Assembly: GCA_009927165.1 (NCBI GenBank)
Contig: RFNO01000113.1
Location: 25,152 to 89,151, forward strand
DNA: 64,000 bases
Direction: 5' to 3'
Origin: Pseudomonadota bacterium
GTDB lineage: Bacteria > Bdellovibrionota > FAC87 > UBA2466
Made by a program: the position numbers and the translations under genes. This document shows, piece after piece, positions 21,635-56,523 of this stretch; position 1 is the stretch's first letter, and every line of letters starts with the position of its first letter. Below the pieces are notes generated by a model, which worked only from the letters and a program-made list of their open reading frames with translations, did not search any database and was not told the origin of the DNA.

Positions 21635-21726
21635 CTGGCCTCCCAGAAATATCGTAACAAATAAGTTTACGAGGATAGCTGCGGCCCCCGCTTTCGTCTA
21701 GGGGTAAGCTGCCCTTTTTTTGATGA

Positions 21727-27604: not shown

Positions 27605-28933
27605 CTAGGCTTTTTGAAACTTAGCGTTAAGTCGTGCAATTTTAAGACCCCACTTTTGCGCTCGATTCAGTATGTCGTTTTCATCGCACAACATCATTTT
27701 CCTGTTTTTCATTAATATTTTTCCACCCACAAGGGTATGCAAAACATCAGCACCGGTTGCACTATAAACCAGATGGGAATAAGGGTCGTAGAGCGGAAAA
27801 CAATGCGGTCCTTTGAGACTTACTGCAATGATGTCCGCTTCTTTTCCCATTTCTAATGAGCCGATTAATTTCTCCAAGTGAAGGGCTCGGGCTCCTTCAA
27901 TCGTCAACATTTTGACGCTTTCAACGGCACTTAATTTCCCCACTCCGTATTTAAAGGCCTGAATTTTTGTTCCAGTGTCCACTTCTTGCAAAAGGTCTAA
28001 ATTATTATTGCTAGCTGTGCTATCGGTACCAAACGATAAAACCGCCCCTTGAGCTCGCAACTCTACTACTGGGCAAATCCCATTTCCCAGCTTGAGATTA
28101 CTTTCAGGATTAAAAACAATACCTACCTGGTTTCTCCCCAGGAGCTTTATGTCATCGTCGCTGAGTTCGACCGCATGCGCACAAATAACTTTTTGATCCC
28201 AAAGCCCAATAGACTCAAACCATTTCACTGGGCTCACGCCTCTTTGTTTGATGATCTCGTGGCACTCTTTCGGGGTTTCCGCTAAATGCGTATGAATCAA
28301 CAAATCGTTTCTCTCAGCATAAGCTATCATTTCCTTCCACAAACTCTCTGAAAGCCCATAAATAGAATGTGGAGCTAACGCGCCCTGAACTCTGGGAAAC
28401 TTGCTCACAGTTTTAAAAAACAAATCAAACTTCTTAAAAACCTCACTCGACTTTTCAACTCCGCTAATTTCAAGATGGGTTTGGCCACATATCGCCCTTA
28501 TTCCCATTCGATGAGCAGCTTCTGCGGCTGCTTCTTCAAAATAATACATATCGTTGAAAGTAGTTGTTCCCGACCGGAGCATTTCCAAACAGGCCAATTC
28601 AGTTCCAAGGGCTACAAAATCTTTTTTTCCCAGAGCCCGCTCTAGAGGAAAAATGTGGTGATTGAGCCATTCATAAAGTGGAAGGTCATCTGCAATGCCC
28701 CTCAATAAGCTCATACCAGTGTGAGTATGGCCGTTGACTAGGCCAGGAAGGAGCAAACAGTTTGATGCATCAAGATTCTTGACGCCTGCTGGGGGTCGAA
28801 AACCTTTTTTGGAGGAAATTTCCTGAATTTTGCCCTGACCTATCTTAATTACTGCGTGCTCAACAATCCGAAGATTATCGTCCATCGTGAGAGCAGTTCC
28901 ACCCCATACAATTAAATCCGTTCGAGTTTTCAT
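27605..28933 (-). CDS. Amidohydrolase-superfamily nucleobase/nucleoside deaminase (MtaD / guanine-deaminase / chlorohydrolase-like)
   Basis: N-terminal HxH metal site (LVNGHTHTGMS) and an HTHLAE motif; 442 aa. Co-oriented with cdd and the deo genes. Confidence 0.65.
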   Translation of the reverse strand: MKTRTDLIVWGGTALTMDDNLRIVEHAVIKIGQGKIQEISSKKGFRPPAGVKNLDASNCLLLPGLVNGHTHTGMSLLRGIADDLPLYEWLNHHIFPLERALGKKDFVALGTELACLEMLRSGTTTFNDMYYFEEAAAEAAHRMGIRAICGQTHLEISGVEKSSEVFKKFDLFFKTVSKFPRVQGALAPHSIYGLSESLWKEMIAYAERNDLLIHTHLAETPKECHEIIKQRGVSPVKWFESIGLWDQKVICAHAVELSDDDIKLLGRNQVGIVFNPESNLKLGNGICPVVELRAQGAVLSFGTDSTASNNNLDLLQEVDTGTKIQAFKYGVGKLSAVESVKMLTIEGARALHLEKLIGSLEMGKEADIIAVSLKGPHCFPLYDPYSHLVYSATGADVLHTLVGGKILMKNRKMMLCDENDILNRAQKWGLKIARLNAKFQKA

Positions 28934-29385
28934 CCTTTTAATTTTTCCGGAGTAAAAGCAAATGGGAAAAGTTGAGGAAACTTAAACTGCCGAAAATGAG
29001 TTCCCTGCGGATTTACTGACGTTACTGTGCAGTTGGGCCCAAACTCTTGAATAACTTGTAGACACATCCCACAAGGCAATACTGGCTCCGCTGAAGAAGC
29101 GACTAGAACCAAGTGCTGAATCTTCGCTCCCCCCTCGGAGACCATTTTTACAATAGCCGTTCTTTCTGCACACAAACCAGCTGGATACGACGCATTTTCA
29201 ACATTACAGCCTGTGAATATTTTCCCTCGGCCATCTTGGAGTGCACACCCCACTAAATACTGGGAATAGGGAGCATAGGCTTTCTTCCGGGCCATCTTCG
29301 CTGCTTTCACTAGGCCTAGCGTCCTGGAATCAAGCTGTTTAATAGGCTGAATAGGATGTGACTTAAGTACGGACGACATGAACAA
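28930..29385 (-). CDS. cdd: Cytidine deaminase
   Basis: CAERTAI and PCGMCLQ zinc-binding motifs; 151 aa. Confidence 0.85.
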   Translation of the reverse strand: MFMSSVLKSHPIQPIKQLDSRTLGLVKAAKMARKKAYAPYSQYLVGCALQDGRGKIFTGCNVENASYPAGLCAERTAIVKMVSEGGAKIQHLVLVASSAEPVLPCGMCLQVIQEFGPNCTVTSVNPQGTHFRQFKFPQLFPFAFTPEKLKG

Positions 29386-30181
29386 ACTCCTTCACAAGGA
29401 ACGCAAACGATTTTTGAACCTTCTTTGCTGTTTCGAGAACTTCAGCATGATCTAACGTTCCAGGAATAACCCCGGATGCTAAATTGGTAACACAAGAAAC
29501 AGCGACTACTTTTTTACCCATATGCTTTAACGCAATAGCTTCGGGAATTGTGGACATTCCAATTACATCAGCGCCTACCATTTTAAGCATTTTCACTTCA
29601 GCTGGTGTTTCATAAGAAGGGCCATGGACCCCAGCATACACTCCCTCTCTCAGAGCGATGCCATTTTCTTGAGCTACTTTCTTCATCGACTCGCGCAAAT
29701 GGGAATCGTAAACTTGCGTCATATCCGGAAATCGAGCTCCCAAAGTTTCTTCGTTAGCACCGATCAAAGGGTTGTCCCCCATACAGTTGATGTGATCTTT
29801 GATTAAGAGAAGGTCTCCAGGATTCATATCGGAGTGCACTCCGCCTGCAGCATTAGTTAACAAAAATGTTTCGGCACCACAAAGAGCAAGGACACGAAAA
29901 GGAAATACAACTTCGGCCATGCTATATCCCTCATAATAATGCAATCGCCCCTGCAAACAGCTAACCCTGATTTTACCCAAAGTTCCAATGACTAATCTCC
30001 CCGAGTGTCCAGGAACAGTCGCTTTTTTGAAGTGAGGGATTTCGTTAAAAGGAATTTCCACCTCAAGTTTCAAATCATCCAATAAACTTCCCAGCCCACT
30101 TCCTAAAACAATTAACATGCCAGGAAAATCAGGACATTTTCTCAGAATGTGGTGTTTTGCTTCTTCCAGTTTTTGCATCAT
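29363..30181 (-). CDS. punA: Purine nucleoside phosphorylase (trimeric PNP-I / PunA type)
   Basis: 272 aa with the PNP/MTAP family phosphate-binding region (LGSGLGSL...VPGHSGRLV). Confidence 0.8.
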   Translation of the reverse strand: MMQKLEEAKHHILRKCPDFPGMLIVLGSGLGSLLDDLKLEVEIPFNEIPHFKKATVPGHSGRLVIGTLGKIRVSCLQGRLHYYEGYSMAEVVFPFRVLALCGAETFLLTNAAGGVHSDMNPGDLLLIKDHINCMGDNPLIGANEETLGARFPDMTQVYDSHLRESMKKVAQENGIALREGVYAGVHGPSYETPAEVKMLKMVGADVIGMSTIPEAIALKHMGKKVVAVSCVTNLASGVIPGTLDHAEVLETAKKVQKSFAFLVKEFVHVVRT

Positions 30182-31512
30182 GCAACTTTCTCCAAAAGAA
30201 AAGGATCTACTCGAGGCTTACGATCGTTCACTAACAAGATACTCTCGAAGGCATCTTTGACAGTTTTTTCAGAAAGACTGTCTCTTAGAATACAAGTGAC
30301 TAACGTGTCTCCTTTTTCAATGCGATCTCCTACTTTTTTTTCAAACACAAACCCAACCCAAGGATCTATTGAGTCAGTGACCCCATTTCTTCCGCCTCCT
30401 ATTTGATTTAACAATAGACCCACTTTCAAAGCTTCACACTGACTTAGATATCCCGCTTGTGAGGCCGTAATTAAAACTTTTTTGTAACCTATCGGTGGTC
30501 TTTTAAAGTTTTTGGTAAACTCATCCCACTGCCCCCCCTGACTTTCAAACATGTTCTGAAAATGAGCGCGAGCTCGACTGCTACTCAACTCTTCAGCACA
30601 CTCCTTTCTGCAAGTTTCTATGGGGATTTGTCTTCGAGAAGAGAGGAAAACCATCTCAGCTGCCATTTCAAGAATCAGTTCTTTTAATCCTGGTTCCTGG
30701 TTCCCATGAAGAAAATCCCAGCATTCTTCTATTTCCAGGAAATTTCCGACATTCCTTCCAATGGGTTCGTCCATCCTAGTCAGATGCGCAACTGCATCGA
30801 TGCGGTTGGCTTTTGCCACTGATACCAACGCCCGAGCAAGCGCCAAAGCCTGTTCACGGTCCTTCATAAATGCTCCAGAACCTACTTTTACATCAAACAA
30901 AAGACCATCCAGATTTTCCGATAATTTTTTGCTCATGATACTGGATACAATCAAGGGAATACTGTCGACTGTCGATGTAACATCCCGGAGTGCATAAATT
31001 CTGCGATCAGCAGGAGCAATTTCCTCTGTCTGTCCAATCATGAAAAATCCGTTTTTTTGAAGCAACTTCAAAGCGTCTGACAATTTTATTTTAGAAGAAA
31101 AACCACCAACAGATTCCAATTTATCTAAGGTTCCCCCGGTGTGCCCCAATCCACGTCCCGACACCATGGGAAGCTTCACTTTCCCTTTGCCGAATAATCT
31201 CTCCGTAACCGCAGCAACAATCGGCACAAGTAAAAGAGACGGCTTATCTCCCACTCCCCCTGTACTGTGCTTATCCACCCAAAAATCATTCCGATGAGAC
31301 CGTTCAAAGGTAGTTCCAGATTTCCACATTAATTGCGTCCATTCCAACGTCTCGTTTACGGTCATTCCTTTGAAACAGACAGCCATCAACCAAGCAGCCA
31401 TTTGATAATCTGTGACGGAGCCCTGCAGAAATGAATTAAGAAAAAAAGATAACTCTTCTGGGGAGTGCTCGCCGCCGTTTTTTTTCTTGGATATTATGTC
31501 TGTAGGTCGCAT
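30178..31512 (-). CDS. deoA: Thymidine / pyrimidine-nucleoside phosphorylase
   Basis: HSTGGVGDK motif plus glycosyltransferase family-3 and C-terminal PYNP domains; 444 aa. Confidence 0.85.
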   Translation of the reverse strand: MRPTDIISKKKNGGEHSPEELSFFLNSFLQGSVTDYQMAAWLMAVCFKGMTVNETLEWTQLMWKSGTTFERSHRNDFWVDKHSTGGVGDKPSLLLVPIVAAVTERLFGKGKVKLPMVSGRGLGHTGGTLDKLESVGGFSSKIKLSDALKLLQKNGFFMIGQTEEIAPADRRIYALRDVTSTVDSIPLIVSSIMSKKLSENLDGLLFDVKVGSGAFMKDREQALALARALVSVAKANRIDAVAHLTRMDEPIGRNVGNFLEIEECWDFLHGNQEPGLKELILEMAAEMVFLSSRRQIPIETCRKECAEELSSSRARAHFQNMFESQGGQWDEFTKNFKRPPIGYKKVLITASQAGYLSQCEALKVGLLLNQIGGGRNGVTDSIDPWVGFVFEKKVGDRIEKGDTLVTCILRDSLSEKTVKDAFESILLVNDRKPRVDPFLLEKVA

Positions 31513-32732
31513 AGAAAACTTTTTCCAAGACCTGGCAGAAGCGGTGCAGACACTTTCAAACCGTCAAGCACAGTGGCACCTATGTCAGAAAATGATGAGC
31601 GATCGTCTAACCTTTGTCCAGGCACGCCGGGCGTGTAAGCAACGAGTGGGACATACTCTCGAGTATGGTCACTCCCCCTAAAAGTCGGGTCACAGCCATG
31701 ATCAGCCGTTAATATGAGACAATCTTGTGGAGTGAGTTCTCCAATGAGTTTAGGATAAAACTCATCCATCTCCACCAGAGCTTTCGCGTATCCGATAGGA
31801 TCTCTCCGATGGCCATACAACATGTCAAAGTCTACCAAATTCACAAAAATAAAAGCTTTTTCATTTTTAGTTTTCTGAAGAAAATCCAGAGTTGCTTTAA
31901 GACTATCCCGATTATTTCCCGTGTGACTTCCGCAACTAATCCCTCGGTGGGCAAAAATATCATCAATTTTGCCAACACTAACAACTTGAATGCCTGATTC
32001 GGTAAGCACATCTAAACAATTTTTTTCGGGAACCAAAGAATAGTCTCTTCGGTTTTCAGTTCTTTTAAATTCGCTCGGATTATCTCCTAAAAAAGGGCGA
32101 GCTATTACTCGGCCAATTTGGTAGGGAATTGTAATACTTCGTGCAATTTCGCAAATTTCATAAAGTCGCTGCAAACCAAAAGATTTTTCGTGAGCAGCAA
32201 TCTGAAATACAGAATCAGCAGAAGTATAAAGAATCGGTTTTCCCGTCTTTAAGTGCTCTTCTCCCAACCGAGAAATGATCTCAGTCCCGCTGGCATGACA
32301 ATTTCCCAACACACCGGGCAAACCAGCAGCTTCAACAAAACTCTTCACTAACTCTGGAGGAAAGCCCTGCGGAAAAACGGAAAAAGCTTTTTGGGTAACT
32401 ACTCCAGCAATTTCCCAATGACCAGAAGTCGTATCTTTTCCGACACTCTTTTCTGCAAGTCGAGACACGAGAGCCAAAGGATTTTTGACTGGAGAAATCC
32501 CAGGAAAAGTCCCCAAATTACCCAATCCTAATTTTTCTAAATTTTTTAATTTCAACCCCCCAACCTTCTCAGCAACATGCGCCAAGGTATTGGAACCCTG
32601 ATCCCCGTAAAACGAAGCGTCGGGTGCTTCACCCACTCCGAGACCATCAGCAACAAGACAAATAAATCTTTTAAATGTTTTCGGAGAAGCCATTTTAATA
32701 ACCTCCGCTGGCTGCTGGAGCTCCTTTGACAA
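31494..32732 (-). CDS. deoB: Phosphopentomutase
   Basis: 412 aa alkaline-phosphatase-like fold with metal-binding Asp/His blocks (TADHGCDPT, GHRRD). Confidence 0.85.
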   Translation of the reverse strand: MSKELQQPAEVIKMASPKTFKRFICLVADGLGVGEAPDASFYGDQGSNTLAHVAEKVGGLKLKNLEKLGLGNLGTFPGISPVKNPLALVSRLAEKSVGKDTTSGHWEIAGVVTQKAFSVFPQGFPPELVKSFVEAAGLPGVLGNCHASGTEIISRLGEEHLKTGKPILYTSADSVFQIAAHEKSFGLQRLYEICEIARSITIPYQIGRVIARPFLGDNPSEFKRTENRRDYSLVPEKNCLDVLTESGIQVVSVGKIDDIFAHRGISCGSHTGNNRDSLKATLDFLQKTKNEKAFIFVNLVDFDMLYGHRRDPIGYAKALVEMDEFYPKLIGELTPQDCLILTADHGCDPTFRGSDHTREYVPLVAYTPGVPGQRLDDRSSFSDIGATVLDGLKVSAPLLPGLGKSFLCDLQT

Positions 32733-33411
32733 TCGCGACTGAAGCAGAAGTTCCTAAACGGTTAGCCCCAGCCGTAATCATTTTGATGGCATCTTCGTAG
32801 GAGCGCACTCCCCCCGAAGCTTTTACTCCCATTTCTGCTCCAACAAGGTCACGCATCAATTGGACGTCCTCAACGGTGGCCCCGGCTTTTGAGAAGCCAG
32901 TTGAGGTTTTTACAAATGCAGCACCTGCTACTTTGGCAAGGGCACAAGCAATAGCCTTTTCCTCAAGAGAAAGTTCACTCGTTTCCAAAATTACTTTTAC
33001 CGGGGCTTGGCCCGCTGCTTTTACTACTTGCTGGATATCATTGAGGACTCGATCATATTCGTGATTTTTGAGCCAAATCCGATTCAGGACCATATCAATT
33101 TCTTGAGCTCCTATTTTGATAGCAGATTGGGTCATTTCCACTTTCTCTTTCGTGGGGGCGGTACCAGCGGGAAAACAGATAACCGCAATCGGAAGCACGC
33201 TGGAACCTTTAAGAGCCGCTACCGCACAGGGAAGCCACTTCAACTCAACACAAACCGTCTTAAATTTATGTTCAATCGCCTCAGCGCAGACCTTTTTAAT
33301 TTCGGCTTCGGTAGCCTCAGGACGCAATAACGTATGGTCAATAAATTGAGAAAGCCCTTGGGGGCTCAGTTGTTTAGGGTCAATGGCTTGATGCTTCATG
33401 AATAGATTCAA
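32695..33411 (-). CDS. deoC: Deoxyribose-phosphate aldolase
   Basis: 238 aa with a Schiff-base Lys region (FVKTSTGF) and the DeoC TIM-barrel pattern. Confidence 0.85.
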   Translation of the reverse strand: MNLFMKHQAIDPKQLSPQGLSQFIDHTLLRPEATEAEIKKVCAEAIEHKFKTVCVELKWLPCAVAALKGSSVLPIAVICFPAGTAPTKEKVEMTQSAIKIGAQEIDMVLNRIWLKNHEYDRVLNDIQQVVKAAGQAPVKVILETSELSLEEKAIACALAKVAGAAFVKTSTGFSKAGATVEDVQLMRDLVGAEMGVKASGGVRSYEDAIKMITAGANRLGTSASVAIVKGAPAASGGY

Positions 33412-33463: not shown

Positions 33464-34963
33464 CTAACCTGCCTTCTTTTTTAAAGAGGAGGGGCTTTCT
33501 AGACCGGTCGACTCATCCAGCTGGTCTCCATCGGGAGAAATATCTTTGGGAGTGGATGAAAAGAAGACTTGTTCTTCTCCATCGTCAGCTCCAAAAAGAC
33601 TGGCTAGAGCCTCTTCCTCGGACGGCTCAGATGCCCCTTTATTTTGGGGCTTTTCCGCTAGGACAGGAGCTTGCATTACGGGAGGTGTGCTTACTTTGGG
33701 AGGCATCATCGGTGAAGCATTTAAAACGGGGGGTACGGGAGGTACTGTCAACTTAGGAGGAACTGGAGGTTTTACGGCTGAAGGCAAGGAAGGCCCGGGA
33801 ATAGGAGGAGGGGGCATCACAGGAGGAACAGCCGACTTGGGAGGGGGCACTAGATTGGGTTTAGGTGGTATAGGTGCAGCGGAAACAGGTTTAGTCGTTG
33901 GGGCGCTATTAGTGTCTGTTCCCGTCTTTTTTAAATAGGGGGCAGCTTCTTCTTTGGTGACAATACCTTCGGCAACGAGATTTAAAAGACTTTGTTCCAT
34001 CAAAATCATACCGTCTTTTTTACCCGTTTGAATAACACCTTCCATCTGGAAGACTTTGCCTTCCCGAATCATGTTAGAAATCGCACTGTTTACTACCATG
34101 ATTTCATAAGCAGCTACTCGGCCTTGTCCGTCAGCTCGTTTGATTAGAGCTTGGCTAATTACTGCAAGAAGGGATTCAGCGATCATAGTTCTGATCATCG
34201 CTTGCTGTCCCTCGGGGAACGAATCAATCATACGGTCAATGGAAGCTGCAGCACCCCGAGTATGGAGTGTTCCAAATACCAAGTGGCCGGTCTCAGCAGC
34301 CGTAAGGGCTAATGAAATCGTTTCCAGATCTCGAAGCTCACCAATCAGAATGACATCGGGATCTTCTCTCAGGGCATATTTCAATGCATCTTGGAAAGTG
34401 TTGCATGAATGGCCGATGTCTCTTTGATTCACTAAACTTTTTTTGGATTGGTGGACAAACTCAATCGGATCTTCCACGGTCAGGATATGACCGGGGAAAG
34501 TAGTATTAATGTAGTCAATAATCGCTGCTAAAGTTGTCGACTTTCCGGAACCAGTAGGACCCGTTACTAGAATGAGACCTTTCGGCTTATCTGCTATTTT
34601 TCGAATAACCTCAGGAAGTCTCAAATCCTCCATGCTTGGAATTTTTACAGGGATGGTACGAAGAACCGCGGCAATCCCCTTACGATTCATGAAGACGTTC
34701 ACACGAAACTGACCGATAGAAGGTACGTAATAACTTTTATCTAAATTTTTTTCTTTGAGAAGTTTTTCTCTTTCTTCCGGGCTCAAAATTTCGAAAACAA
34801 TTTTTTTCACTTCGTCAGGCGAAGTGTGAGAATCTTGCAATCCTACCAAGTCTCCATCGATTCGAAACCGTACCGGTTCCTCTGCCGAAAAGTGAATATC
34901 GCTGGCTCGCTTCTCCATAGCAAAAGCAAGAATTTGGTCAATTTTTTTCATGACTCGCTCCAC
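33464..34963 (-). CDS. pilT: Type IV pilus retraction ATPase PilT with an atypical ~150-aa proline-rich C-terminal extension
   Basis: N-terminal PilT signature (ASDIHF, Walker A GPTGSGKST, Asp box, His box AIRTMIAESL). Residues from about 350 to 499 are PxxP / PPV-rich and end in an acidic stretch. Confidence 0.85.
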   Translation of the reverse strand: MERVMKKIDQILAFAMEKRASDIHFSAEEPVRFRIDGDLVGLQDSHTSPDEVKKIVFEILSPEEREKLLKEKNLDKSYYVPSIGQFRVNVFMNRKGIAAVLRTIPVKIPSMEDLRLPEVIRKIADKPKGLILVTGPTGSGKSTTLAAIIDYINTTFPGHILTVEDPIEFVHQSKKSLVNQRDIGHSCNTFQDALKYALREDPDVILIGELRDLETISLALTAAETGHLVFGTLHTRGAAASIDRMIDSFPEGQQAMIRTMIAESLLAVISQALIKRADGQGRVAAYEIMVVNSAISNMIREGKVFQMEGVIQTGKKDGMILMEQSLLNLVAEGIVTKEEAAPYLKKTGTDTNSAPTTKPVSAAPIPPKPNLVPPPKSAVPPVMPPPPIPGPSLPSAVKPPVPPKLTVPPVPPVLNASPMMPPKVSTPPVMQAPVLAEKPQNKGASEPSEEEALASLFGADDGEEQVFFSSTPKDISPDGDQLDESTGLESPSSLKKKAG

Positions 34964-35111
34964 ACCCTTAAAATCAAATGGGACAAAGGTATCTGTTCTC
35001 TCTCACTTATCGGCACAAAGAGAGAGTTCCGTTACCTTTCTCACGGCCACTTAATGCGACGCGACCAGACTGGAAATCCGCATGAATATTGAGAACATGC
35101 TAAACTAAGCT

Positions 35112-36989
35112 GTGTTTTCTACGATTCATTTTTTTCAGTCAGCACAAGAACTACCCGGACTTTTTGATTCTTTCTTCTCAGGAATTTTTCTCGTGCGGGG
35201 TTTGGCTATTTTTTTCCAAGTTGGATTGCTCTCGGCTTTCGCGCTTACCCTTTTTTCTTCTTATCGTTTTTCTCTTCAACCCAGTGGTGCATGGAAACGG
35301 TTAGCGAGCGGCGGCGCTTTCCTGACATTGGTTCTATCTGCGTTTTTGATTTTTCAACCTTGGGATGAACTTTTCATTTTCCTTCGGCATTCAAAACATC
35401 TGGCAGAAAACGGTATTTTTTCGTTCAACCGATTTGAAAAGAGCGAGGGGATTGTTGATTTCCTTCCCTTTTTTGTTTTGGGACTGCTCGCAAAACTAGG
35501 CCTGCCTCTGCTGGAGACCAATTTTGCGTTTGGAATCCTGGGCTCTTGGCTTTGCGTGACTGCAGCAAGACGTTTACTTATTGAACTCAAAGTGAAAGGT
35601 GCAGAAGTTTGGGCCTATCCCTTACTGGTTGTTTACCCTCCCCTTCTCTTAAACATGGGAAATGGTTTTACCGTTCTTTTATTTACTGCTTCTCTTTTAT
35701 GGAGTTTGAACTTTCTTTTCTTTGACAGAAAACCAGTGGCGGGTTGGTTTCTATTGTCCTTAGTACCGCTAATTCGGATCGAAGGATTGTGGTTTACTCT
35801 ACTTGTCTTAGTTTTCTCATTCAAAACGAATCGATTTCCCCCCAACAAATCTCTTCACGTACTGATTTCAATTGGTGTCTTTATTCCTGCTTTTTTTCTT
35901 ACCCTCTGGAGATTACGGTACTTTGGTCATTATCTCCCTGTACCAGTCCGCTACAAATCAGCTATCGGTAATGGCTTTTACGCACTTATTGGCGCTCGAA
36001 ATCTTTTTCTGGACCTCCTGGCCAGCCTTTCGGTCATATTTATCTGGCATTGGTTTATATTTCCGAAACAACGAGTTCAAAATAACGAGCAACTTAGGTT
36101 GGCATTCAAACTCTGGGGGCTGCTCCTCATTTTTTGTATGCCCTATTACTTTTCAGGAGGAGATTGGTTTCCTCCAGCTTGGGGAAGGTACTTATTTCCC
36201 TTTTCGTTTTTTGGATTTATTTTGTTTATCACTTTATTTGAAAGCTGCTCAACTGATGTCTTTAAGAGACAATCATACTTTCAGCTTTTAAATGCTGTTC
36301 TGTTAATCATTCTGACTTTACTTCCCTTTGGAAGCATCTCTAAATCCTTCGAAGTACTTTTTACACCAAAGAAAAGTTTGTCAGGACTCCATCAAAAAAA
36401 GACAGGTAAAAGCAATTTTCGACTTCAGCAACTCTCTCAGCTAGGAACCCATTTAAAGAATACTACTTCTCCAACTGCTCAAATTGCATCTTCTGAATTG
36501 GCTACCATTATGTATTTTGCCGAACGAGAAACCTTGGACTTATTGGGGGTTACCAATTCCGATATTGCTTCCTCACCGTTGCGTACTCCACCTAAACTTT
36601 TTTCCAAAGCCACTCGACGAAATGAACTTCCCTACTTAATTTTTAAGCGACTTAAACCTGAGTTAATTGCAGAAAAAAGACCGTCTATTGTTTATGCTTT
36701 TGATTTTCTGGTTACCGATCTCATCGAAAATAGGGAACTAGAAGAAATTAATGATTCGGATATTTTTTTGGCTCTTTCAAGATGGGAGCGCAGATTTCAA
36801 GGACTTAACGATGAACTTTTTGGTGGAATGACTGAGCTCAAACGAATCGGCTATGCTCCAGTAGTAGTCAAATATGGAGTTTCTTTTTACGCACTCTATT
36901 TCGTATCACCACAAGAAAAGGAAGATCACTTCCAGAGGATGAAGCAACATGGACTGATTGGCACTTTGATTAGGAATAATCGTCTTTAA
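35112..36989 (+). CDS. Large polytopic membrane protein (N-terminal multi-TM half, C-terminal ~230-aa soluble half), possibly a GT-C-like glycosyltransferase
   Basis: 625 aa, at least 10 TM helices, and a DE-containing loop after the early TMs (FQPWDELFIF). No precise family match recognised. Confidence 0.3.
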   Translation: MFSTIHFFQSAQELPGLFDSFFSGIFLVRGLAIFFQVGLLSAFALTLFSSYRFSLQPSGAWKRLASGGAFLTLVLSAFLIFQPWDELFIFLRHSKHLAENGIFSFNRFEKSEGIVDFLPFFVLGLLAKLGLPLLETNFAFGILGSWLCVTAARRLLIELKVKGAEVWAYPLLVVYPPLLLNMGNGFTVLLFTASLLWSLNFLFFDRKPVAGWFLLSLVPLIRIEGLWFTLLVLVFSFKTNRFPPNKSLHVLISIGVFIPAFFLTLWRLRYFGHYLPVPVRYKSAIGNGFYALIGARNLFLDLLASLSVIFIWHWFIFPKQRVQNNEQLRLAFKLWGLLLIFCMPYYFSGGDWFPPAWGRYLFPFSFFGFILFITLFESCSTDVFKRQSYFQLLNAVLLIILTLLPFGSISKSFEVLFTPKKSLSGLHQKKTGKSNFRLQQLSQLGTHLKNTTSPTAQIASSELATIMYFAERETLDLLGVTNSDIASSPLRTPPKLFSKATRRNELPYLIFKRLKPELIAEKRPSIVYAFDFLVTDLIENRELEEINDSDIFLALSRWERRFQGLNDELFGGMTELKRIGYAPVVVKYGVSFYALYFVSPQEKEDHFQRMKQHGLIGTLIRNNRL

Positions 36990-38397
36990 GCGCCATTTTG
37001 AGAAATTGTTTTCTAAACAGAAATAAAACAGAACTGACGATGAGAATCGACTGAATAATACTACCCAAGTCGGTGGCATAAGACATGACTGGCATGAGAA
37101 ATGCCATAAAAGCAAAATAAAAATAACCCTTCAAAAAATAATAGGACAATCGCTCAACCGCTGAAATAATGAGGCCCATCACGATTCCACAGATGTACAT
37201 TCCCATATAACCGAAATTCATGTAAGCCTCCGCAAAGTAGTTAACAGCCACGGAGGTTTGGTTGTCATCATCACTGAGAAAACCGTAAGTTTTTCCAAAT
37301 CGATTCCAAATATGTCTACTCGGTTTATCGCTCCATAAAAATCGAGGAATAAAGAGATACGGCAAACTTTCATAAGAAGCCCCGTTCCAGAAGGGCACAT
37401 AAGAGGGTGTCCAACTCATCACTCGCTCAAGGGAGTCGTCACCTAATCGAGAAAAACCATGCAGAAGCGAATCACCTACGTCTCGTGTTCCCGAGCTTAC
37501 AGCGTCTTCGTCAGTTTCCTCAATCGACTCTTCGATAAGAAACTTTTCATAAAGAAGAGTTCCCAGAACTTCAAAGCGCTCACTGTATTGCGCCGTTGGA
37601 TTATTAAAAATAAATTGTCGAAAGGAAGATTTTACTGTCTGCACCGCTGATCCCAACACGGTAAGAATTGCAGGAATTAAGAGAAGTTTGTAATTGCGTC
37701 TCAAACATGCTGCAATAAATATATAACCAGCTAGATTACCCACCATAGTCAACATTCCCGTTTTAATAAAGTAGAGAACTGCTGACACGAATACCCCAAT
37801 TCTGAGAAAGGAGCTTACTAATTCATTTTTTGGAGAATGAGAGCACATCAAAAGAACCAAGTCAGCGGCTACAGCTGCAAAATGGAAAATCAATGCCCAA
37901 GAAGGCAGATAATCAATAAAAAGTGGAACGCCAATCACGTAAAAGGAAACAACGGTCAGTTGCAAACGGCTTAAAGAGAGAAGTTGATACTTTTCTCGTT
38001 CAACAAAGGAGTAAAAAATAAACAGCCGAAAAAAATGATAGCTGGTTGCCATAATCAGCGTGCAAATAATCAACTCTTTTATAGAAGAAATTGCCTCAGG
38101 GAACAAATCATCTACTTTATAGATATTTTTCAACTGATTGTATTTGGGTATCGAATAACAAACAAAATGGTTAAAGAGGGTAAAAGTAATGAAATGATAC
38201 TTTTGTTTACCAAATGCGATTAGAAACGGAGTTATCTGAATGAGCATCAACAGATAGAGGTAGTTTACTCCTCCACCATCGAACAAAATTTGGTGTAAAA
38301 CGTAAGCAACACTGCCTGATAAAAACACAAAGACCACAAGGAAATAGACATTGAAAAACGTGGGATGAAAAAATTCTCTTCGTGCAGGTGCGTACAC
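36970..38397 (-). CDS. Polytopic membrane protein resembling the Wzy / O-antigen-ligase family (oligosaccharide polymerase or O-oligosaccharyltransferase-like)
   Basis: 475 aa, about 10-12 TM helices. A large Arg-containing extracytoplasmic loop near the C-terminus, then NYFAEAYMNFGYMGM, reminiscent of Wzy_C proteins. Confidence 0.3.
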   Translation of the reverse strand: MYAPARREFFHPTFFNVYFLVVFVFLSGSVAYVLHQILFDGGGVNYLYLLMLIQITPFLIAFGKQKYHFITFTLFNHFVCYSIPKYNQLKNIYKVDDLFPEAISSIKELIICTLIMATSYHFFRLFIFYSFVEREKYQLLSLSRLQLTVVSFYVIGVPLFIDYLPSWALIFHFAAVAADLVLLMCSHSPKNELVSSFLRIGVFVSAVLYFIKTGMLTMVGNLAGYIFIAACLRRNYKLLLIPAILTVLGSAVQTVKSSFRQFIFNNPTAQYSERFEVLGTLLYEKFLIEESIEETDEDAVSSGTRDVGDSLLHGFSRLGDDSLERVMSWTPSYVPFWNGASYESLPYLFIPRFLWSDKPSRHIWNRFGKTYGFLSDDDNQTSVAVNYFAEAYMNFGYMGMYICGIVMGLIISAVERLSYYFLKGYFYFAFMAFLMPVMSYATDLGSIIQSILIVSSVLFLFRKQFLKMALKDDYS

Positions 38398-38536
38398 GCC
38401 TACTCCTTGGCTGTGTGTAGTGAGGAACTAATTTTCCTAACTTAGATATCGGTATTTTCTAGAAATAACTTTTGCTGCCAGCCCTCAAGAATAGACCAGT
38501 AGCGTCATCCTGCCCTGTATTTTTGAGGTACACTGG

Positions 38537-39889
38537 TTGAATAAAATTATGCCATCAGTTCAAAGGCTTCTCCTAATAATCGTTTTTATCCTTACCCTCA
38601 GTCTGGTCTTGATGAGTCAATTTACTTTTTTTAGGCACGATGATTGGCTCATGCTCGGAAATAGCGTAACTATTCTGCCCCAAGATTGGAGCTTTCTCTG
38701 GTCTCATGAACTCTATTTTTCACCAACGGAAAAAGGAATTTGGTTCTTTCGTCCATTATTTAAAGGAATGGTATGGTTAGGTTATCAAGCCTTTGGCTAT
38801 CACCATTCCCTTTGGATGTTTTTTCAATGGTTTCTTATCCTAGCTAGTATTTTTATTGGAACCCGAACTTTTTACTCCCACCCCCAATCATTAAAAAAGG
38901 GATATGTATTTTCCTTACTTTCGGTAAGTTGCATCGCTTTCTATTTGCCTAGTTTAGTTTGGATGGGCGAAGGAATGATGAACATTCCTCAAGTCTTTCT
39001 GCTTTCCTTAGCAGTGTTCCTTTTTTTCCATTCGAATTTGTGGGCTCAAATCATGTCCCTTTTTTGTTTTTTACTCGCTTTGGGATTTAAAGAATCAAGT
39101 GCCTTTCTCCCTCTTTTTTTAATTGGGAAGCTTCTGGCAGAGAACACCTTCAACCGCAGATGGAAGTGGCTTATTCCCCATTTTGTATTAATGGGAGCAT
39201 ATCTTATATTTCGACTTGGCTTAGTGCCTATGAATCCGGGTTACATGCCTCAAATAAGCTTTTCCCATTTACTCAAACCCATTTTCTTTTTTGGGGCAGC
39301 TCTATGTTTGCCCTTGGTGGTTCTTTTGATTGATTCCTACAGTGGAAATGGAACTCTCTGGTACTTAAGCTTAAGGCGGTTCTGTTATTTCACTCCATTT
39401 ATTAGTCTTTTAGTTGCGCCTCACTTGGGTCACGGTTTTTTTTCTCCGGGTTGGTTTTTTCTTCCTGGCTTTTTTACCCTCTGGTCACTGGTAATTTCGC
39501 TTGAGATTCCTCTGGTTGAACAGATATCTCAAAAGCGGCTTGTAGTGCTGGCATTATTTTTTTCGCTCCTCCCCGTACTCTGGAAAGCACATGAACTTCG
39601 ATGGTGGGAATGGCGACAATCTCAACTGGCCGTTTACGATTGGGTCGAAAAATCCCCCAATTCGGTCACGGATATCTTGATTGAACAATGTAATTCATCT
39701 CAGAATTCATCGCTTACTTTTGAGCGTGTCGTTGGGGGACCAGAGCACATTGAACATCTTTGGAAGCTTAAACATCCCGGACTGGTCACAGTTCACTTGG
39801 TGCCATGCGATCAAACCTCACCTGATAAAGAGAAAACACCGAAGCACATTTCTGCTCGATGGAGCTTTCCAGATTTTATTACTAATTAA
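38537..39889 (+). CDS. Polytopic membrane protein, GT-C-fold (ArnT/PMT-like) glycosyltransferase candidate
   Basis: 450 aa. DD motif in the first extracytoplasmic loop (FFRHDDWLMLGN), at least 10 TM helices and a C-terminal soluble tail. Confidence 0.3.
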   Translation: MNKIMPSVQRLLLIIVFILTLSLVLMSQFTFFRHDDWLMLGNSVTILPQDWSFLWSHELYFSPTEKGIWFFRPLFKGMVWLGYQAFGYHHSLWMFFQWFLILASIFIGTRTFYSHPQSLKKGYVFSLLSVSCIAFYLPSLVWMGEGMMNIPQVFLLSLAVFLFFHSNLWAQIMSLFCFLLALGFKESSAFLPLFLIGKLLAENTFNRRWKWLIPHFVLMGAYLIFRLGLVPMNPGYMPQISFSHLLKPIFFFGAALCLPLVVLLIDSYSGNGTLWYLSLRRFCYFTPFISLLVAPHLGHGFFSPGWFFLPGFFTLWSLVISLEIPLVEQISQKRLVVLALFFSLLPVLWKAHELRWWEWRQSQLAVYDWVEKSPNSVTDILIEQCNSSQNSSLTFERVVGGPEHIEHLWKLKHPGLVTVHLVPCDQTSPDKEKTPKHISARWSFPDFITN

Positions 39890-39894
39890 TTTTC

Positions 39895-40407
39895 TTAAGT
39901 GTCAGATTGAGGATCGATTTCAACAAGCAAAGTTCCGGTTTCGACTGCTTGACCTTCTTTTACGCAAACATTCTTCACTCGGCCATCAACAAGGGCCTTT
40001 ATTTCATTTTCCATTTTCATGGCTTCCATTACCATCAGCGAATCACCGGTAGCAACAGTGTTTCCGACAACGGTGGATATTTTGGTGATTTTTCCGGGCA
40101 TTTTGGCGTAAACATTGTTCTCAACTTCTAGGTTCTGGCCCCGAAGCAAGCCGACGATTCTGCGATATTCGCTCTCGACAGAGAAGTTCAAATTCCCTTC
40201 CGGACGCCACACGGTATAATCAGTTTTATCACCGACAATATTCGCGTTAAAAACACCCTTTTCATGCAAAAGCGTGTAATCATTTCCATATGAAGATATG
40301 TCGACAAGTTGTTCAGGTTCATCACCGAACTTAACCCAATGCTGTTCATCGCGAGACTCTACTCGAACTTTGTACTCTTGCTCTTGATATCGGATGTAAA
40401 AAAGCAT
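39895..40407 (-). CDS. Biotin carboxyl carrier protein / biotinyl-domain subunit of acyl-CoA carboxylase
   Basis: C-terminal biotinyl domain with an EAMKMEN biotinylation motif. The N-terminal ~90 aa are not the usual Ala/Pro linker. Confidence 0.7.
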   Translation of the reverse strand: MLFYIRYQEQEYKVRVESRDEQHWVKFGDEPEQLVDISSYGNDYTLLHEKGVFNANIVGDKTDYTVWRPEGNLNFSVESEYRRIVGLLRGQNLEVENNVYAKMPGKITKISTVVGNTVATGDSLMVMEAMKMENEIKALVDGRVKNVCVKEGQAVETGTLLVEIDPQSDT

Positions 40408-41906
40408 TATCGAAGAGCCTCCTCACGCCCCACTTGTTTCCAAAATGAATTCTCAGTGGCTTCTTTCCTTCTATCGCCACCTTTGTATTCTCGGCCATAA
40501 GCACAAACGGCAGCTGAGATTAGCGCCATTCTAAGGTCTTCAGGCGTTGGTTTGGCATCAACGTAGTGGAAATCCTCCCCAATCAAACGGGTAGTATAAT
40601 TTCCAATCACAAATTTCGGGTTATTCAAAAGTTGGAGGTGCACCGGAATGTTTGTTTTTACACCATTCATGACGGTATCCATAAGAGCAGCTTTGCCGCG
40701 GTTAATAGCTTCCATTCGGTCGCGTCCCCAAACGGTCAATTTGGCAATCATGGAATCGTAGAACACCGGGATTTCATAGCCGCGGTAAAGATGAGAATCT
40801 ACTCGAACCCCAATTCCCCCTGGAAAACTTACCCCAGTTACTTTTCCAGCTTGAGGTAAAAACTTTTCAGGATCTTCGGCGCAAATTCGAAACTCCATCG
40901 CATGTCCGTTTTGCTTTATATCATCTTGAGCAAACGATAACTTTTCACCAAATGCGACTCTCAACTGTTCTTTCACCAGATCTCTGCCAGTAGTCCACTC
41001 CGTAACTGGATGCTCAACCTGTAAACGAGTATTCATTTCCATGAAATAAAAATTTTGGTTCTCATCAACAAGCATCTCAATGGTTCCGGCATTTACGTAA
41101 CCGATATCCTTAACGGCTCGTACTGCAGCCTCACATAATTTTTTTCTCGTATCTGGGCTAATAAACGGACTTGGACTTTCTTCGATTATTTTCTGATGTC
41201 GTCGTTGTACGGAGCACTCTCTTTCGAAAAGATGAACTGCGTTCCCATGGGAATCCGCAATCACTTGCACTTCGATGTGGTGAGGTGATGTTACATATTT
41301 TTCAAGGTATACACGCCCATCACCAAAAGCTTTTTGAGCCTCAGAAAAAGCCCGACGAAAAAGATTGATAAACTCACTTTCCGAGTTCACCACTCGCATT
41401 CCGCGACCACCACCACCCGCCAAAGCTTTAATCATGACGGGAAATCCGATTTCCTTGGCAGCTTTAAATGCCTCATTTTCGTCAGACAAACCCTCTTTAG
41501 TTCCTGGGACTAAAGGCAAATGCCCCAGTTTCGCCATGGTTTGTCTCGCCATGACTTTATCACCCATGGTAGCAATGGCTTCCGCGGAGGGACCCACAAA
41601 GACCAAACCCGCTTTGGCGACCGCCTTAGCAAACTCAGCTTTTTCGGAGAGAAAACCGTATCCCGGATGAATAGCATCAGCTTTTAGTGCTTTTGCAGCT
41701 TTAAGAACAGAGTCGATATCTAAGTAACTGTGAATAGAGGGACCTTCGCCCACACAATAAGCCCCATCGGATTTGGCCACGTGCAATGAGTAACGATCCG
41801 CTTTGGAATAAACAGCTAGCGGTGTGTGTCCCATTTCACGGCAAGCTCTCATCACTCTCAGAGCGATTTCACCGCGGTTAGCTACAAGAATTCTTCGTGG
41901 TTTCAC
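40407..41906 (-). CDS. accC: Biotin carboxylase subunit of acetyl/propionyl-CoA carboxylase
   Basis: ATP-grasp fold with GGGGRGMR and a biotin carboxylase C-terminal domain; 499 aa. Confidence 0.9.
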
Positions 41907-43453
41907 AGGGGAATATTTCCGTGTTTTTTGGGAGGCATTCTATCCCGTTTGTTTTTAAGCATCTCTAAAGCTTGCGACAACTTTAAACGAGTTTGCTCAG
42001 GGAAAATGATTTCATCCACAAACCCTAACTCTGCAGCTTTATAAGGAGTTGCAAAAGTATCGGTGTATTCCTGAATCAGACGATTTTTTTCAGAAACTGC
42101 ATCCGCCGATTTTTGAAGTTCGTTTCTGAAAACGATAGCTACAGCTCCTTCAGGACCCATGACAGCAATTTCTCCCGTGGGATAAGTGAAATTAATATCG
42201 GCACGTAGCTGTTTCGAAGCCATCACACAATAAGCTCCGCCATAAGCTTTTCTCGCAATCACTGTGATTTTGGGAACAGTGGCTTCAGAGTATGCATAGA
42301 GCAATTTAGCTCCGTGGCGAATAATCCCGCCGTACTCTTGCTCTGTTCCAGGCAAGAAACCAGGAACATCTACAAAGGTAATAATAGGAATGTTGAACGC
42401 ATCACAGAATCTGACAAAGCGAGCAGCTTTGTCAGAAGCATTTACGTCTAAACATCCAGCTAAAACGGCTGGCTGATTGGCTACAATCCCAACGCTCTTA
42501 CCCCCGAGACTTCCAAAACCTATTAGAAGGTTGGGCGCAAAATCCTTTTGAATTTCCAAGAAATAATTATCATCCAGAACCGCTTCAAGAACCTCTTTCA
42601 TGTCATAAGCTTGTTTTGAGTTTTCTGGTATAAGAGTTCTCAATCTGGGTTCGGTTCTTTGAACGGGATCTGAAGTTTTGATTTTCGGGACTTCATCCAC
42701 GTTATTAGATGGCAAATAAGTGAGGAGTTCTCGCACCAGTAAGAGACAGCTTTTCTCGTCATCGCTGGCCATGTGACAAACGCCGCTTTTAGTGGAGTGC
42801 GTGACTGCCCCTCCTAGCTCTTCCATGGTTACATCTTCGTGAGTCACAGTTTTGATAACATCAGGCCCTGTTAAGAACATGTAACTGGATTTCTTCACCA
42901 TGAAGATAAAATCGGTGAGACCGGGACTGTAAACGGCACCTCCCGCACAAGGCCCCATAATTACTGAAATCTGAGGCACTACCCCAGAAGCTTGCGTGTT
43001 TCGATAAAAAATTTCAGCGTATCCAGCCAGCGACTCAACGCCTTCTTGAATACGAGCACCACCAGAATCGCAAAGCCCTATGACTGGCCGACCATTCTTC
43101 AGCGCGAGGTCTAAAACTTTACAAATCTTTTTAGCGTGAGTCGCCGAGAGAGACCCGCCAAAAACCGTGAAGTCTTGGGCAAAAACATAGACATGACGGC
43201 CGGAGACCGTCCCATAACCAGTAACTACCCCGTCTCCCAAGATCTGTTTTTCACCCATCCCAAAATCGGTACACCGGTGGGTAACGAACTTATCTAATTC
43301 GACAAAACTTCCTTCATCCAAAAAGAACTGAAGCCGCTCGCGGGCGGTCATTTTCCCTTTTTCATGTTGTTGTTGGACTCGCTCAAGGCCTCCGCCTAAT
43401 TCGGCCTCAGCGTTTTGTTTTTGTAACTTTTGAAACTTTTGCTCCAGGTTCAT
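41903..43453 (-). CDS. pccB: Acyl-CoA carboxylase carboxyltransferase subunit (propionyl-CoA carboxylase beta / methylmalonyl-CoA carboxyltransferase 12S type)
   Basis: 516 aa with two crotonase-like carboxyltransferase halves (N and C). Overlaps accC by 4 nt. Confidence 0.85.
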
Positions 43454-54969: not shown

Positions 54970-56523
54970 TTAGAACAATGAACCCTCAGTGAGTTGGGAA
55001 AATCCTTTTCGCAACAAAAATAAAGCCGCACCACCCACTACTAAAGTAGTGAGCAAAATATCTCCCAATGCGGATAAACGACTCGATTGATAAATACCTA
55101 TTTTAGAAATTCCATATGCCATAGCTCCCAACAATACCAAAGCACCAGTCCAGGCAATTCCAAACTTTATTACTGGTCGAAAAGAAATTTCAGAGGAATA
55201 TTTCTTAACGTGATGCTTGAGCAAAACTCCCAAAAAAATACTGTAACAGGCAATTCCTAGCGAACCCGAAATAGCCAATCCTCGAACTCCCCATTTCTGT
55301 GAAAGAACAAAATACAAAGGAACAAATACAATTGTCAGAAGGGTACCGAACAGGGAGGGAAGCCAGGTCGTCTGGGTAGCATAAAAACCGCGGGACAATA
55401 GAATCTGCATAATCCAAAACACTAATCCTAAGCCCATCAGCTGAAGTAGCTGAGCAGTTTCCATCAGATCGCTCTGGCTGAGTTTGCCTCCGCCGTAAAT
55501 AAAATGGGTAATGGGTAAAGCATGAGTAAATAAAAGAAGAGCTGCCAAAGGGCCCAGTGCCCATATTTTTTGAATCTCTTGTACAAGCGTTTTTCCAAAA
55601 TTTTTATACTGTTGCTGTGCCCACAATCTCGACAAATGGGGATAACTAGCTATCCCAGCCGCTTGCCCAATTACAGCAATCGGGATTCTCAATTCAGTTC
55701 TTGCATAGCTCAACCTGCTCACGGCTCCCTCGCCCAAGTAACTGGCTAGATATTTAGAAATCCATTCATCAGCAACTACCAGAGAAAACGCGAACATGAT
55801 AGGAACACTCATCCAAAGATATTTTTTGAATGCGTGAAGTGTTTCCGATTCCAATTTGAATGACGGCAGTATGGAATATCCAAGTTTATGAAGTCCCCAC
55901 CACTGTAAAAACCCATAGCCTAAAATGGCCCCGACAAGAACTCCCAAACTGAAAGCAGCAACTCCTAATTGGGAGTAAAAAGAAACCCCAAATAAAATGA
56001 TGCATAAATTATAAAGAATGGGAGCTACAGCGGAATAAACAAATTTCCCATGAGTTTGTTGGACCCCATTGGCTAATCCTCCCCAAAAAAAGAAGAATTG
56101 AGCGGGGACAATAATTCGAAGAAGAAGCGCAAGAGAATTAAGCTGTTCTGTGGAGAAACCCGGCGCAACCCATTTTGCTAAGGTATCGGATTGTAACTGA
56201 CAAAACAAAATAAGTACGAGCATCAAAAAACATAAATAAGTAGAAATAGTCCGATAAATTTTTTTGCCGATTTCCGCTTTCTCACTTCCAACATAAGCTG
56301 ATAAAACGGGAATCAGCGAAACATTCAGTGCCCCAGCCGCCATTAAATAGTTTAAAAAATCAGGAACTGTAAACGAGGCTAAATAGACGTCTGAAACTCC
56401 ACTCGCTCCTACTGTTTGCGCCAGAATCCACTCGCGCAAAAAACCTAGAATTCGCGATAAAAAAATACTCGCCACTAACATTAGACTGGCTGTCTTGATA
56501 TTTTTTTTGATGTCTTGAGTCAA
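54970..56523 (-). CDS. murJ: Lipid II flippase MurJ (MviN)
   Basis: 14-TM MOP-superfamily protein with a MurJ N-terminal signature (SRILGFLRE...VSDVY..F.VPDFL). Confidence 0.85.
   Translation of the reverse strand: MTQDIKKNIKTASLMLVASIFLSRILGFLREWILAQTVGASGVSDVYLASFTVPDFLNYLMAAGALNVSLIPVLSAYVGSEKAEIGKKIYRTISTYLCFLMLVLILFCQLQSDTLAKWVAPGFSTEQLNSLALLLRIIVPAQFFFFWGGLANGVQQTHGKFVYSAVAPILYNLCIILFGVSFYSQLGVAAFSLGVLVGAILGYGFLQWWGLHKLGYSILPSFKLESETLHAFKKYLWMSVPIMFAFSLVVADEWISKYLASYLGEGAVSRLSYARTELRIPIAVIGQAAGIASYPHLSRLWAQQQYKNFGKTLVQEIQKIWALGPLAALLLFTHALPITHFIYGGGKLSQSDLMETAQLLQLMGLGLVFWIMQILLSRGFYATQTTWLPSLFGTLLTIVFVPLYFVLSQKWGVRGLAISGSLGIACYSIFLGVLLKHHVKKYSSEISFRPVIKFGIAWTGALVLLGAMAYGISKIGIYQSSRLSALGDILLTTLVVGGAALFLLRKGFSQLTEGSLF

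Follow-up and report, generated by a model that had tools for sequence, protein, structure and literature searches.

What might three large membrane proteins, encoded side by side between pilT and a group of acyl-CoA carboxylase genes, be doing there? The locus lies at 35112-39889 of a 64-kb stretch of DNA (hereafter the window) from a bacterium of the Bdellovibrionota (assembly GCA_009927165.1, contig RFNO01000113.1), and its genes are called here A, B, and C. An earlier note, made from the letters of this DNA, had described three consecutive genes on alternating strands with products of 625, 475, and 450 amino acids (aa), and the list of open reading frames (ORFs) places them exactly so: A at 35112..36989 (+ strand, 625 aa), B at 36970..38397 (- strand, 475 aa), and C at 38537..39889 (+ strand, 450 aa from the earliest possible start, TTG 38537). 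The likelier start of C is the ATG at 38549 (446 aa), which is the one called by NCBI (P0111) and which fits the near-invariant M5 of the family alignment. Each gene has dozens of full-length homologues with 30-77% identity, all from uncultured bins labelled Proteobacteria, Bdellovibrionales, or Bdellovibrionota, and A, B, and C are therefore real genes. The products are polytopic, as described, with 11, 10, and 9 strong transmembrane (TM) segments by hydropathy in A, B, and C, respectively, and with about 12 (A) and 11 (C) TM helices suggested by the secondary structure of AlphaFold2 (AF2) models, beside an earlier estimate of about 10-12 for each. The flanks are also as described, with pilT (TIGR01420, E 3.6e-142) on one side and the genes for biotin carboxyl carrier protein (BCCP), biotin carboxylase, and carboxyltransferase on the other.

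From family profiles and predicted structures, the locus encodes members of two GT-C families without a profile model, together with a Wzy-like protein of divergent sequence; these are enzyme kinds that are already known, in an unusual and variable arrangement. Two points go beyond the earlier note: the content of the slot between BCCP and pilT varies among relatives, and A is linked there to a polyprenyl-phosphate phosphoribosyltransferase (PPPRS). Current understanding is not overturned by these results; annotation is refined and a testable donor is indicated. A and C, two GT-C families that are not covered by Pfam or NCBIfam but have confident models and clear motifs, are targets for annotation and for biochemistry.

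Families of the three proteins

There are 40 homologues of A. Neither A nor any of 32 family members is matched by a Pfam or NCBIfam model; a sequence profile search of the PDB with the family alignment was likewise empty. The AF2 model built on this alignment (pLDDT 91.3, pTM 0.92) has mycobacterial AftB as its best Foldseek match in the PDB (9dlf_C, E 5.5e-6; 9dlh, 1.5e-5; TM-score 0.45-0.50), followed by ArnT (5f15, 2.1e-4, with another match at 9e-4), AftA (1.4e-3), STT3A (4.4e-3), and ALG9 (2e-2). All of these are GT-C glycosyltransferases, matched with a Foldseek probability of 1.00. On its predicted fold A is thus a GT-C glycosyltransferase.

The second TM helix of A is followed by the first extracytoplasmic loop, which carries the PWDE motif (35358..35369, + strand); D85 and E86 of this motif do not vary among 32 sequences with identities as low as 29%. 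In the model they stand just past the TM helix, where a loop containing short helices begins. The catalytic D62 of AftB is part of a DD motif at the tip of juxtamembrane helix 1, and R221 and R372 hold the donor phosphate (PMC12041299). By analogy, D85 and E86 are presumed to be the catalytic acidic pair, and the motif may be equivalent to the DD motif of AftB. Further along, the PLIRIEG motif (35766..35786, + strand), with P219, R222, and E224 invariant and a helix break at residues 222-224 in the model, is a candidate donor-phosphate binding site that is predicted to face the periplasm. In the model, two TM helices are joined by the PYYFSGGDWFPPAWGRY loop (36141..36191, + strand), which has Y345, Y346, G349-P354, and R359 as its invariant residues. 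The correspondence of D85/E86, R222, and R359 to D62, R221, and R372 of AftB is suggestive.

The AF2 secondary structure has a soluble alpha/beta domain at the C-terminus of A, residues 411-625 (36342..36986, + strand), the conserved residues of which include R437, E462, D476, and P524. The DE loop and the soluble C-terminal domain of the earlier description are both present, the latter being about 215 aa rather than about 230 aa. Topology counting would place this domain in the periplasm, and in its general layout it is similar to the periplasmic domain of AftB; in the model a short N-terminal strand (residues 4-10) possibly pairs with it. Combining the helices of the model with counts of lysine and arginine points to 12 TM helices, an outside location of both termini, and one extra N-terminal helix before the canonical TM1 of GT-C proteins. 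Such a topology puts all of the invariant motifs on the periplasmic side: PWDE (83-86), PPLLLN, P219/R222/E224, P..YKS, GGDWFP (349-354), and R359.

AftB (GT-C_A) and A share several features: the polytopic GT-C core precedes a soluble C-terminal domain assigned to the periplasm, the first extracytoplasmic loop bears two adjacent acidic residues, and arginines are conserved in loops further along. The differences are that the two proteins share 13-14% sequence identity and are not connected by HMM or profile searches of the PDB, that A has DE where AftB has DD, that A seems to carry the extra N-terminal TM helix and the N-terminal strand on the C-terminal domain, and that the host of A is Gram-negative, with DprE1/E2 genes not seen.

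In the case of C, the window protein matches no Pfam or NCBIfam model, PMT_2 is matched by one of 33 family members at E<1e-3, and a PDB sequence profile search with the family alignment found nothing meaningful. The AF2 model (pLDDT 94.2, pTM 0.93) has as its top Foldseek matches STT3A (E 0.067, probability 0.96), EmbB, Pmt1/Pmt2 (probability 0.98), ALG9, DPY19, and AftA. A profile search of 1.84 billion representatives returned 3221 relatives, 66 of them forming the core family (E<=1e-30), with a long tail of proteins of 480-780 aa that match profile positions from about 5 to 235. Among 40 proteins of this distant tail, 21 have PMT_2, 4 have PMT, and 26 have TPR repeats. The C family aligns with 40 PMT_2+TPR proteins in hhalign over 368 columns (99.9%, E 3.9e-34), with FRHDD over FVYDD and FFRP over YRP. 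Since this alignment is strong and the motifs are in register, C is an offshoot, lacking TPR repeats, of the PMT_2/TMTC-like GT-C clan, the clan of PMT and ArnT (GT39/GT83/GT105), and its earlier description as a GT-C of the ArnT/PMT type holds. One homologue of C carries the NCBI name "glycosyltransferase family 39 protein".

The FRHDDW motif of C (38630..38647, + strand) comes directly after TM1, and F32, R33, H34, D35, and D36 are invariant in 33 sequences, D35 and D36 presumably forming the GT-C catalytic pair. The loop motifs on which the earlier note had leaned are therefore conserved throughout both families, DD in C and DE in A. There is no match to TPR repeats in C or in the C family. 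Where the relatives hold these repeats, C has an alpha/beta domain of about 95 aa with invariant C385 and C424 (39596..39886, + strand). The count of 11 TM helices and the conserved cysteine pair would place the N-terminus inside and this domain in the periplasm, with a C385-C424 disulfide. In hhalign, A against C is not significant (7.5%) and A against the PMT_2+TPR proteins is marginal (50%, E 1.6e-4), so that A and C belong to different GT-C lineages.

The window copy of B has no Pfam match, and its match to TIGR04370, "oligosaccharide repeat unit polymerase", over residues 316-453 (E 4.2e-6) is below the cut-off. Within its family, 21 of 42 members match PF14296 (O-ag_pol_Wzy) at E<=0.01, the best at 1.1e-9, and three match PF01901. 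On these profile matches B is a divergent Wzy-type (PF14296-like), polymerase-like membrane protein. The matches to Wzy profiles fall on a large, net-acidic extracytoplasmic loop of 140 aa (residues 256-395; 37213..37632, - strand), in which R260, R317, T330, P331, P335, Y342, P351, R352, W355, K358, P359, and E390 are invariant. This is the large, late, arginine-containing loop noticed earlier, with R260 and R317 among its invariant arginines in the family alignment; the block TP..VP...G..Y....IPR.LW.DKP is conserved, and E390 is invariant within NYFAEAYMNFG / NYFAEAYMNFGYMGM.

The earlier assignment of B to a Wzy or O-antigen-ligase type stands in its first half. Ten or more TM helices and, late in the sequence, a large periplasmic loop bearing invariant arginine are features that B has in common with the Wzy polymerases (PF14296, TIGR04370) and WzyE, and like WzyE it is well conserved and syntenic within its clade. 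The ligase half, and with it the link that had been drawn to PglL and PilO, finds no support, since none of the 42 family members matches PF04932 (Wzy_C) at E<=0.01 and the hhalign probability with E. coli WaaL is 0.3%. What B shares with PglL, PilO, and WaaL is a polytopic architecture and a large periplasmic loop with conserved arginine; it differs in its family and in having no pilin gene near it in the window. PglL, PilO, and WaaL act on glycans linked to undecaprenyl diphosphate. The comparison with E. coli WbbH gave 8.8%, and that with WzyE was marginal (79%, E 1.6e-5) and limited to 95 N-terminal columns; these single-sequence comparisons are too weak for placing B. A PDB sequence profile search with the B-family alignment found nothing.

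In a scan of one genome per species, full-length relatives of B are confined to Bdellovibrionota-type bins, and outside these the C-terminal loop module alone matches, in Planctomycetota, Acidobacteriota, Verrucomicrobiota, cyanobacteria, and others. At 10 loci of such distant relatives, from several phyla, 32 of 120 neighbouring ORFs are GT4 or GT1, and there are also GDP-mannose dehydratases and epimerases, asparagine synthases, GT2s, and carbamoyltransferases, so that the loop module is one of classical polysaccharide clusters. The usual company of a wzy gene (Wzx, an initiating transferase, cytoplasmic glycosyltransferases) is present around these distant relatives but not around B in the Pfam-annotated parts of the window, which span ~4975-22138 and 25112-64000 (hereafter the annotated window); nor is there a Wzz near B. 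In one close relative, at locus L096, a GT4 gene adjoins B. Typical wzy genes are hypervariable and are located inside glycan clusters, which B is not.

The BCCP-pilT slot in relatives and a probable donor of A

About 15 related Bdellovibrionota loci were compared by tblastn and gene tables. The order BCCP-C-B-A-pilT of the window is shared by L009. In L012 a UbiA gene is added (BCCP-C-B-UbiA-A-pilT), and in L007 and L010 a HAD:UbiA fusion gene stands in the place of C (BCCP-HAD:UbiA-B-A-pilT). There is no C in L011 and L095 (BCCP-B-A-pilT), nor in L091, where genes for proteins of 173, 513, and 410 aa lie between BCCP and B-A-pilT. Conversely, A is absent from L004 (BCCP-C-B-pilT) and from L006 and L014, where BCCP-C-B is followed by other genes. 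Both are absent from L096 (BCCP-GT4-B-pilT), L015 (BCCP-B-pilT), and L016, in which 3 kb separate B from pilT, while in L094 BCCP is followed by C, with B 7 kb away.

None of the related BCCP-pilT loci that were compared lacks B. All of the loci retain the BCCP flank, and pilT is lost from L006, L014, and L094. In L091 the position of C is occupied by two other polytopic proteins of 410 and 513 aa that have no Pfam match (13286-16056, - strand). In the 410-aa protein the first TM helix is directly followed by VPVADEAWYL, which contains a DE pair, and this protein may represent yet another GT-C family.

A and B overlap tail to tail by 20 bp at their convergent 3' ends (36970..36989), and such an overlap, of 14-56 bp, is also kept in L009, L011, L091, and L095; antisense or transcriptional interference could result from it. 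Taken over all of these loci, the BCCP-pilT slot acts as a mix-and-match island of glycan enzymes, in which the constant trait is the collecting of such enzymes. With its conserved Wzy-like gene as an anchor, the variable slot is a compact natural experiment on surface-glycan diversity in an uncultured lineage.

NF006088, a fusion of HAD and UbiA, is the family of the UbiA genes of L007 and L012, which score 508 and 352 bits (cut-off 351). After it, their best matches are models of decaprenyl-phosphate phosphoribosyltransferase (DPPRS), at 1e-31 to 1e-45, far ahead of other UbiA subfamilies. The UbiA protein of L007 was also considered as a divergent C and rejected, its hhalign probability against the C family being 0.3%. 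Within the slot, UbiA is found in 3 of 8 A-positive loci and in none of 7 A-negative loci. Outside the slot, the most distant homologue of A (P0110, in L090, with 31% identity) lies 4.5 kb from a UbiA gene, the product of which passes two NCBIfam equivalog cut-offs for DPPRS (275 > 234 bits and 253 > 207 bits). The L090 cluster, which looks complete for the making of a pentofuranose donor, also holds two GtrA-family genes, a HAD phosphatase, a short-chain dehydrogenase/reductase (SDR), an FAD oxidoreductase, and an ArnC/GtrB-like GT2.

There are precedents for such a pairing. In Citrobacter youngae the HAD-UbiA PPPRS encoded by ORF15 makes undecaprenyl-phospho-ribofuranose for a GT-C that adds periplasmic pentofuranose side chains, and the combination of a HAD-UbiA PPPRS, a flippase, and a GT-C serves for periplasmic pentofuranose addition (Kelly et al. 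2024, PMC11127046). The donor of AftB is decaprenyl-phospho-arabinofuranose (PMC12041299), and AftB is fed by a DPPRS-like UbiA, the type of synthase that partners A in the relatives. The association with UbiA genes of the PPPRS type, the L090 cluster, and the AftB-like fold together point to polyprenyl-phospho-pentofuranose as the most likely donor of the A family, by analogy with these systems. For the organism of the window itself such a donor would depend on genes elsewhere, as there is no synthase of this kind in the window.

The resemblance to the three-component system of C. youngae O1/O2, in which the GT-C is of GT136 (PMC11127046), extends to the HAD(PRP)-UbiA fusion of ORF15 architecture that relatives pair with an A-family GT-C, and to the GtrA-type flippase candidates and epimerase-like genes that L090 adds. 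It also extends to the concept of decoration in the periplasm after polymerisation, A being a GT-C with a predicted periplasmic C-terminal domain. Unlike the C. youngae system, the window has no PPPRS (by tblastn and Pfam) and no small flippase in its annotated parts, the PPPRS genes being those of L007, L010, L012, and L090, and the three genes lie beside an orphan Wzy-like gene and not inside an O-antigen cluster. If the link between A and PPPRS is true, it would carry the pathway of periplasmic pentofuranose addition to the Bdellovibrionota and, beyond GT136, probably to an AftB-like branch of GT-C.

An FAD oxidoreductase of the PRK07208/PRK07233 "hypothetical protein" families is seen near A-family genes in two unrelated contexts, L089 (4197-5609) and L090 (9216-10520), and in L090 it adjoins the SDR and phosphoribosyltransferase genes. 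By analogy with DprE1/DprE2, it may be part of an oxidase/reductase pair that epimerises a lipid-linked pentose.

A proposed function and its alternatives

The reading that we favour, at a little better than even, is that the three proteins work at the periplasmic side of the inner membrane in assembling or decorating a surface glycan, and that the slot is a mix-and-match decoration island. B would join, or possibly ligate, undecaprenyl-diphosphate-linked units on the periplasmic face, these units being made and flipped by the products of genes elsewhere in the genome. A and C would each use the acidic pair of the first extracytoplasmic loop, D85/E86 in A and D35/D36 in C, to take one sugar from a polyprenyl-monophosphate donor and attach it to an acceptor in the periplasm. 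The sugar transferred by A would most likely be a pentofuranose, either ribofuranose or an epimer such as arabinofuranose, and that transferred by C, on the model of the PMT/ArnT clan, would most likely be a hexose. The acceptor of A and C might be the product of B, another glycan, lipid A or core, or a protein. The presence and absence of genes across the slot is the pattern that strain-variable glycan decoration would be expected to give. The topology of the proteins, their donors and acceptors, and the sharing of one glycan target by A, B, and C are the points at which we infer, whereas the genes themselves, their fold and family assignments, the invariance of the motifs, and the variability of the slot are shown.

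Several results weigh against this reading. In the annotated window there is no Wzx, cytoplasmic (Leloir) glycosyltransferase, or sugar-nucleotide gene, as the earlier note had already remarked of the immediate neighbourhood, and no initiating transferase; this is not a standard O-antigen locus. Nor is there a polyprenyl-phosphate sugar synthase, either PPPRS or GtrB/ArnC-like GT2, or a GtrA, MATE, or SMR flippase, the sole MOP-family flippase being MurJ (54970..56523), and tblastn with the UbiA protein of L007 found no homologue anywhere in the 64-kb window. The glycan system is therefore incomplete locally. Window B falls under the curated cut-off of every Wzy model, its 26 bits for TIGR04370 standing against a cut-off of 40, and the Foldseek E-values for C are weak, at 0.07-0.4, with none below 1e-3. 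The association of UbiA with A in the slot is not significant alone (one-sided Fisher p ~0.12); it is strengthened by the independent association in L090. The apparent constancy of B is partly an effect of ascertainment, because most of the loci were found through B. B is found without A or C in L015, and A is found outside the slot without B in L089 and L090, so that the trio is separable and may not share one substrate. Finally, A, B, and C are three separate transcription units, as they lie on alternating strands with divergent intergenic regions between pilT (-) and A (+) at 34964..35111 and between B (-) and C (+) at 38398..38536.

The last of these points lead to a serious alternative, although an improbable one, in which there is no functional module at all, and three unrelated envelope genes with partners elsewhere and different substrates have come to lie in a recombination-prone slot. 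The separate transcription units would be expected of such genes, and every pairwise combination of A, B, and C is seen in the relatives, as is B alone, with A occurring elsewhere without either of the others. The slightly lower GC content at 36-40 kb than in the flanks (0.39-0.40 compared with 0.42-0.47) also counts in its favour. Against it, all of the entrants to the slot are glycan enzymes (two GT-C families, PPPRS, GT4, and polytopic proteins with DE after TM1), A and B keep their tail-to-tail overlap in relatives, and PPPRS in the slot is restricted to A-positive loci.

A shared surface glycan is preferred to an unconnected set of genes, but the acceptor could instead be a protein. In this unlikely alternative the genes serve protein O-glycosylation, that of pilin in particular, with A acting like TfpW of P. 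aeruginosa and C like a PMT/TMTC O-mannosyltransferase, and the adjacency to pilT is pilus-related. TfpW, itself a GT-C, draws on a polyprenyl-phosphate donor to attach D-arabinofuranose to type IV pilin, and in needing a PPPRS, a GtrA-like protein, and DprE1/E2 it is a clear precedent (bioRxiv 10.1101/2020.04.19.049825; PMC11127046). The relatives of C are PMT_2/PMT proteins with TPR, in a clan that includes protein O-mannosyltransferases, and pilT adjoins in most of the related loci. However, no prepilin N-terminal motif is found in any of the six frames of the 64-kb window, and pilT is the only type IV pilus gene within +/-10 kb of the locus. tfpW adjoins pilA and not pilT, and A has no adjoining major pilin gene in the window. 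The BCCP flank is more constant in the related loci than pilT, which is missing from three of them, and the homologues of A in L089 and L090 are in glycan clusters without pilus genes.

The functional tie to pilT that the earlier note had proposed is thus not borne out, and pilin glycosylation of the PglL/PilO type is rejected, as B belongs to another family and the window contains no pilin gene. The earlier interpretation was largely right at the level of fold; its extension to pilin is what finds no support. A functional tie to the acyl-CoA carboxylase genes on the other side is also rejected, the relationship being one of synteny only.

Modification of lipid A or LPS (lipopolysaccharide) core by an ArnT-like A or C, with B as an unrelated O-antigen polymerase, is more unlikely still: ArnT is the second-best structural match of A, PMT_2 (PF13231), the distant relative of C, includes ArnT-type enzymes, and the lipid A of Bdellovibrio is reported to bear mannose instead of phosphate, but AftB matches A better, the partners of A in relatives are PPPRS genes and not genes for 4-amino-4-deoxy-L-arabinose, arnC-like or arnE/F-like partners are not in the annotated window, and the presence of A and C varies among close relatives, which would be unusual for a core lipid A trait.

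Within the preferred reading, that of periplasmic assembly or decoration of a surface glycan, a more specific and rather doubtful proposal is that this clade of the Bdellovibrionota makes a glycan like a "common antigen" by means of B as an orphan housekeeping Wzy-like protein. This glycan would be diversified in the periplasm by swap-in GT-C cassettes, including an AftB-like enzyme fed by polyprenyl-phospho-pentofuranose. If true, this would be arabinan or ribofuranan chemistry of the mycobacterial type in a Gram-negative lineage, with side chains possibly built wholly outside the cytoplasm and no Leloir glycosyltransferases in the locus.

Flanking genes

The GC content of the window is 0.39-0.40 across 36001-40000, the region of the three genes, and 0.42-0.47 in the flanks; the low value is compatible with membrane-protein composition or with horizontal origin. 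A scan of the locus for promoters and terminators found promoter-like sites to be no commoner than in shuffled sequence.

The PilT protein (33464-34963, - strand) has a proline-rich (24% Pro), low-complexity C-terminal tail of about 155 aa, especially in 33464-33928, after a normal core of about 345 aa. The PilT proteins of the relatives are 465-628 aa, and a tail of variable length seems to be conserved in the clade. Directly upstream of pilT in the relatives is a conserved ORF of 48-78 aa with a single TM segment and the motif H.Y...E.Y...IPLGF (L004 11563-11733, L007 9594-9830, L091 9766-9912, L095 11328-11504, and L096 6390-6551), of which tblastn found no counterpart in the window.

Directly downstream of pilT, on the same strand (27605-33411, -) and syntenic in the relatives, is a nucleoside/deoxyribose catabolism operon encoding an amidohydrolase, cytidine deaminase, purine nucleoside phosphorylase, thymidine phosphorylase, phosphopentomutase, and DeoC. 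This operon has a bearing on pentose-phosphate metabolism. At the far end of the window a 1605-aa ORF with no Pfam match runs off the sequence from about 60346 (L093 13658-18475). On the other side of the trio, the carboxyltransferase, biotin carboxylase, and BCCP genes (39895-43453, - strand) share the window with a methylmalonyl-CoA mutase gene (53437-54969, + strand), which suggests a propionyl-CoA carboxylase pathway rather than an acetyl-CoA carboxylase.

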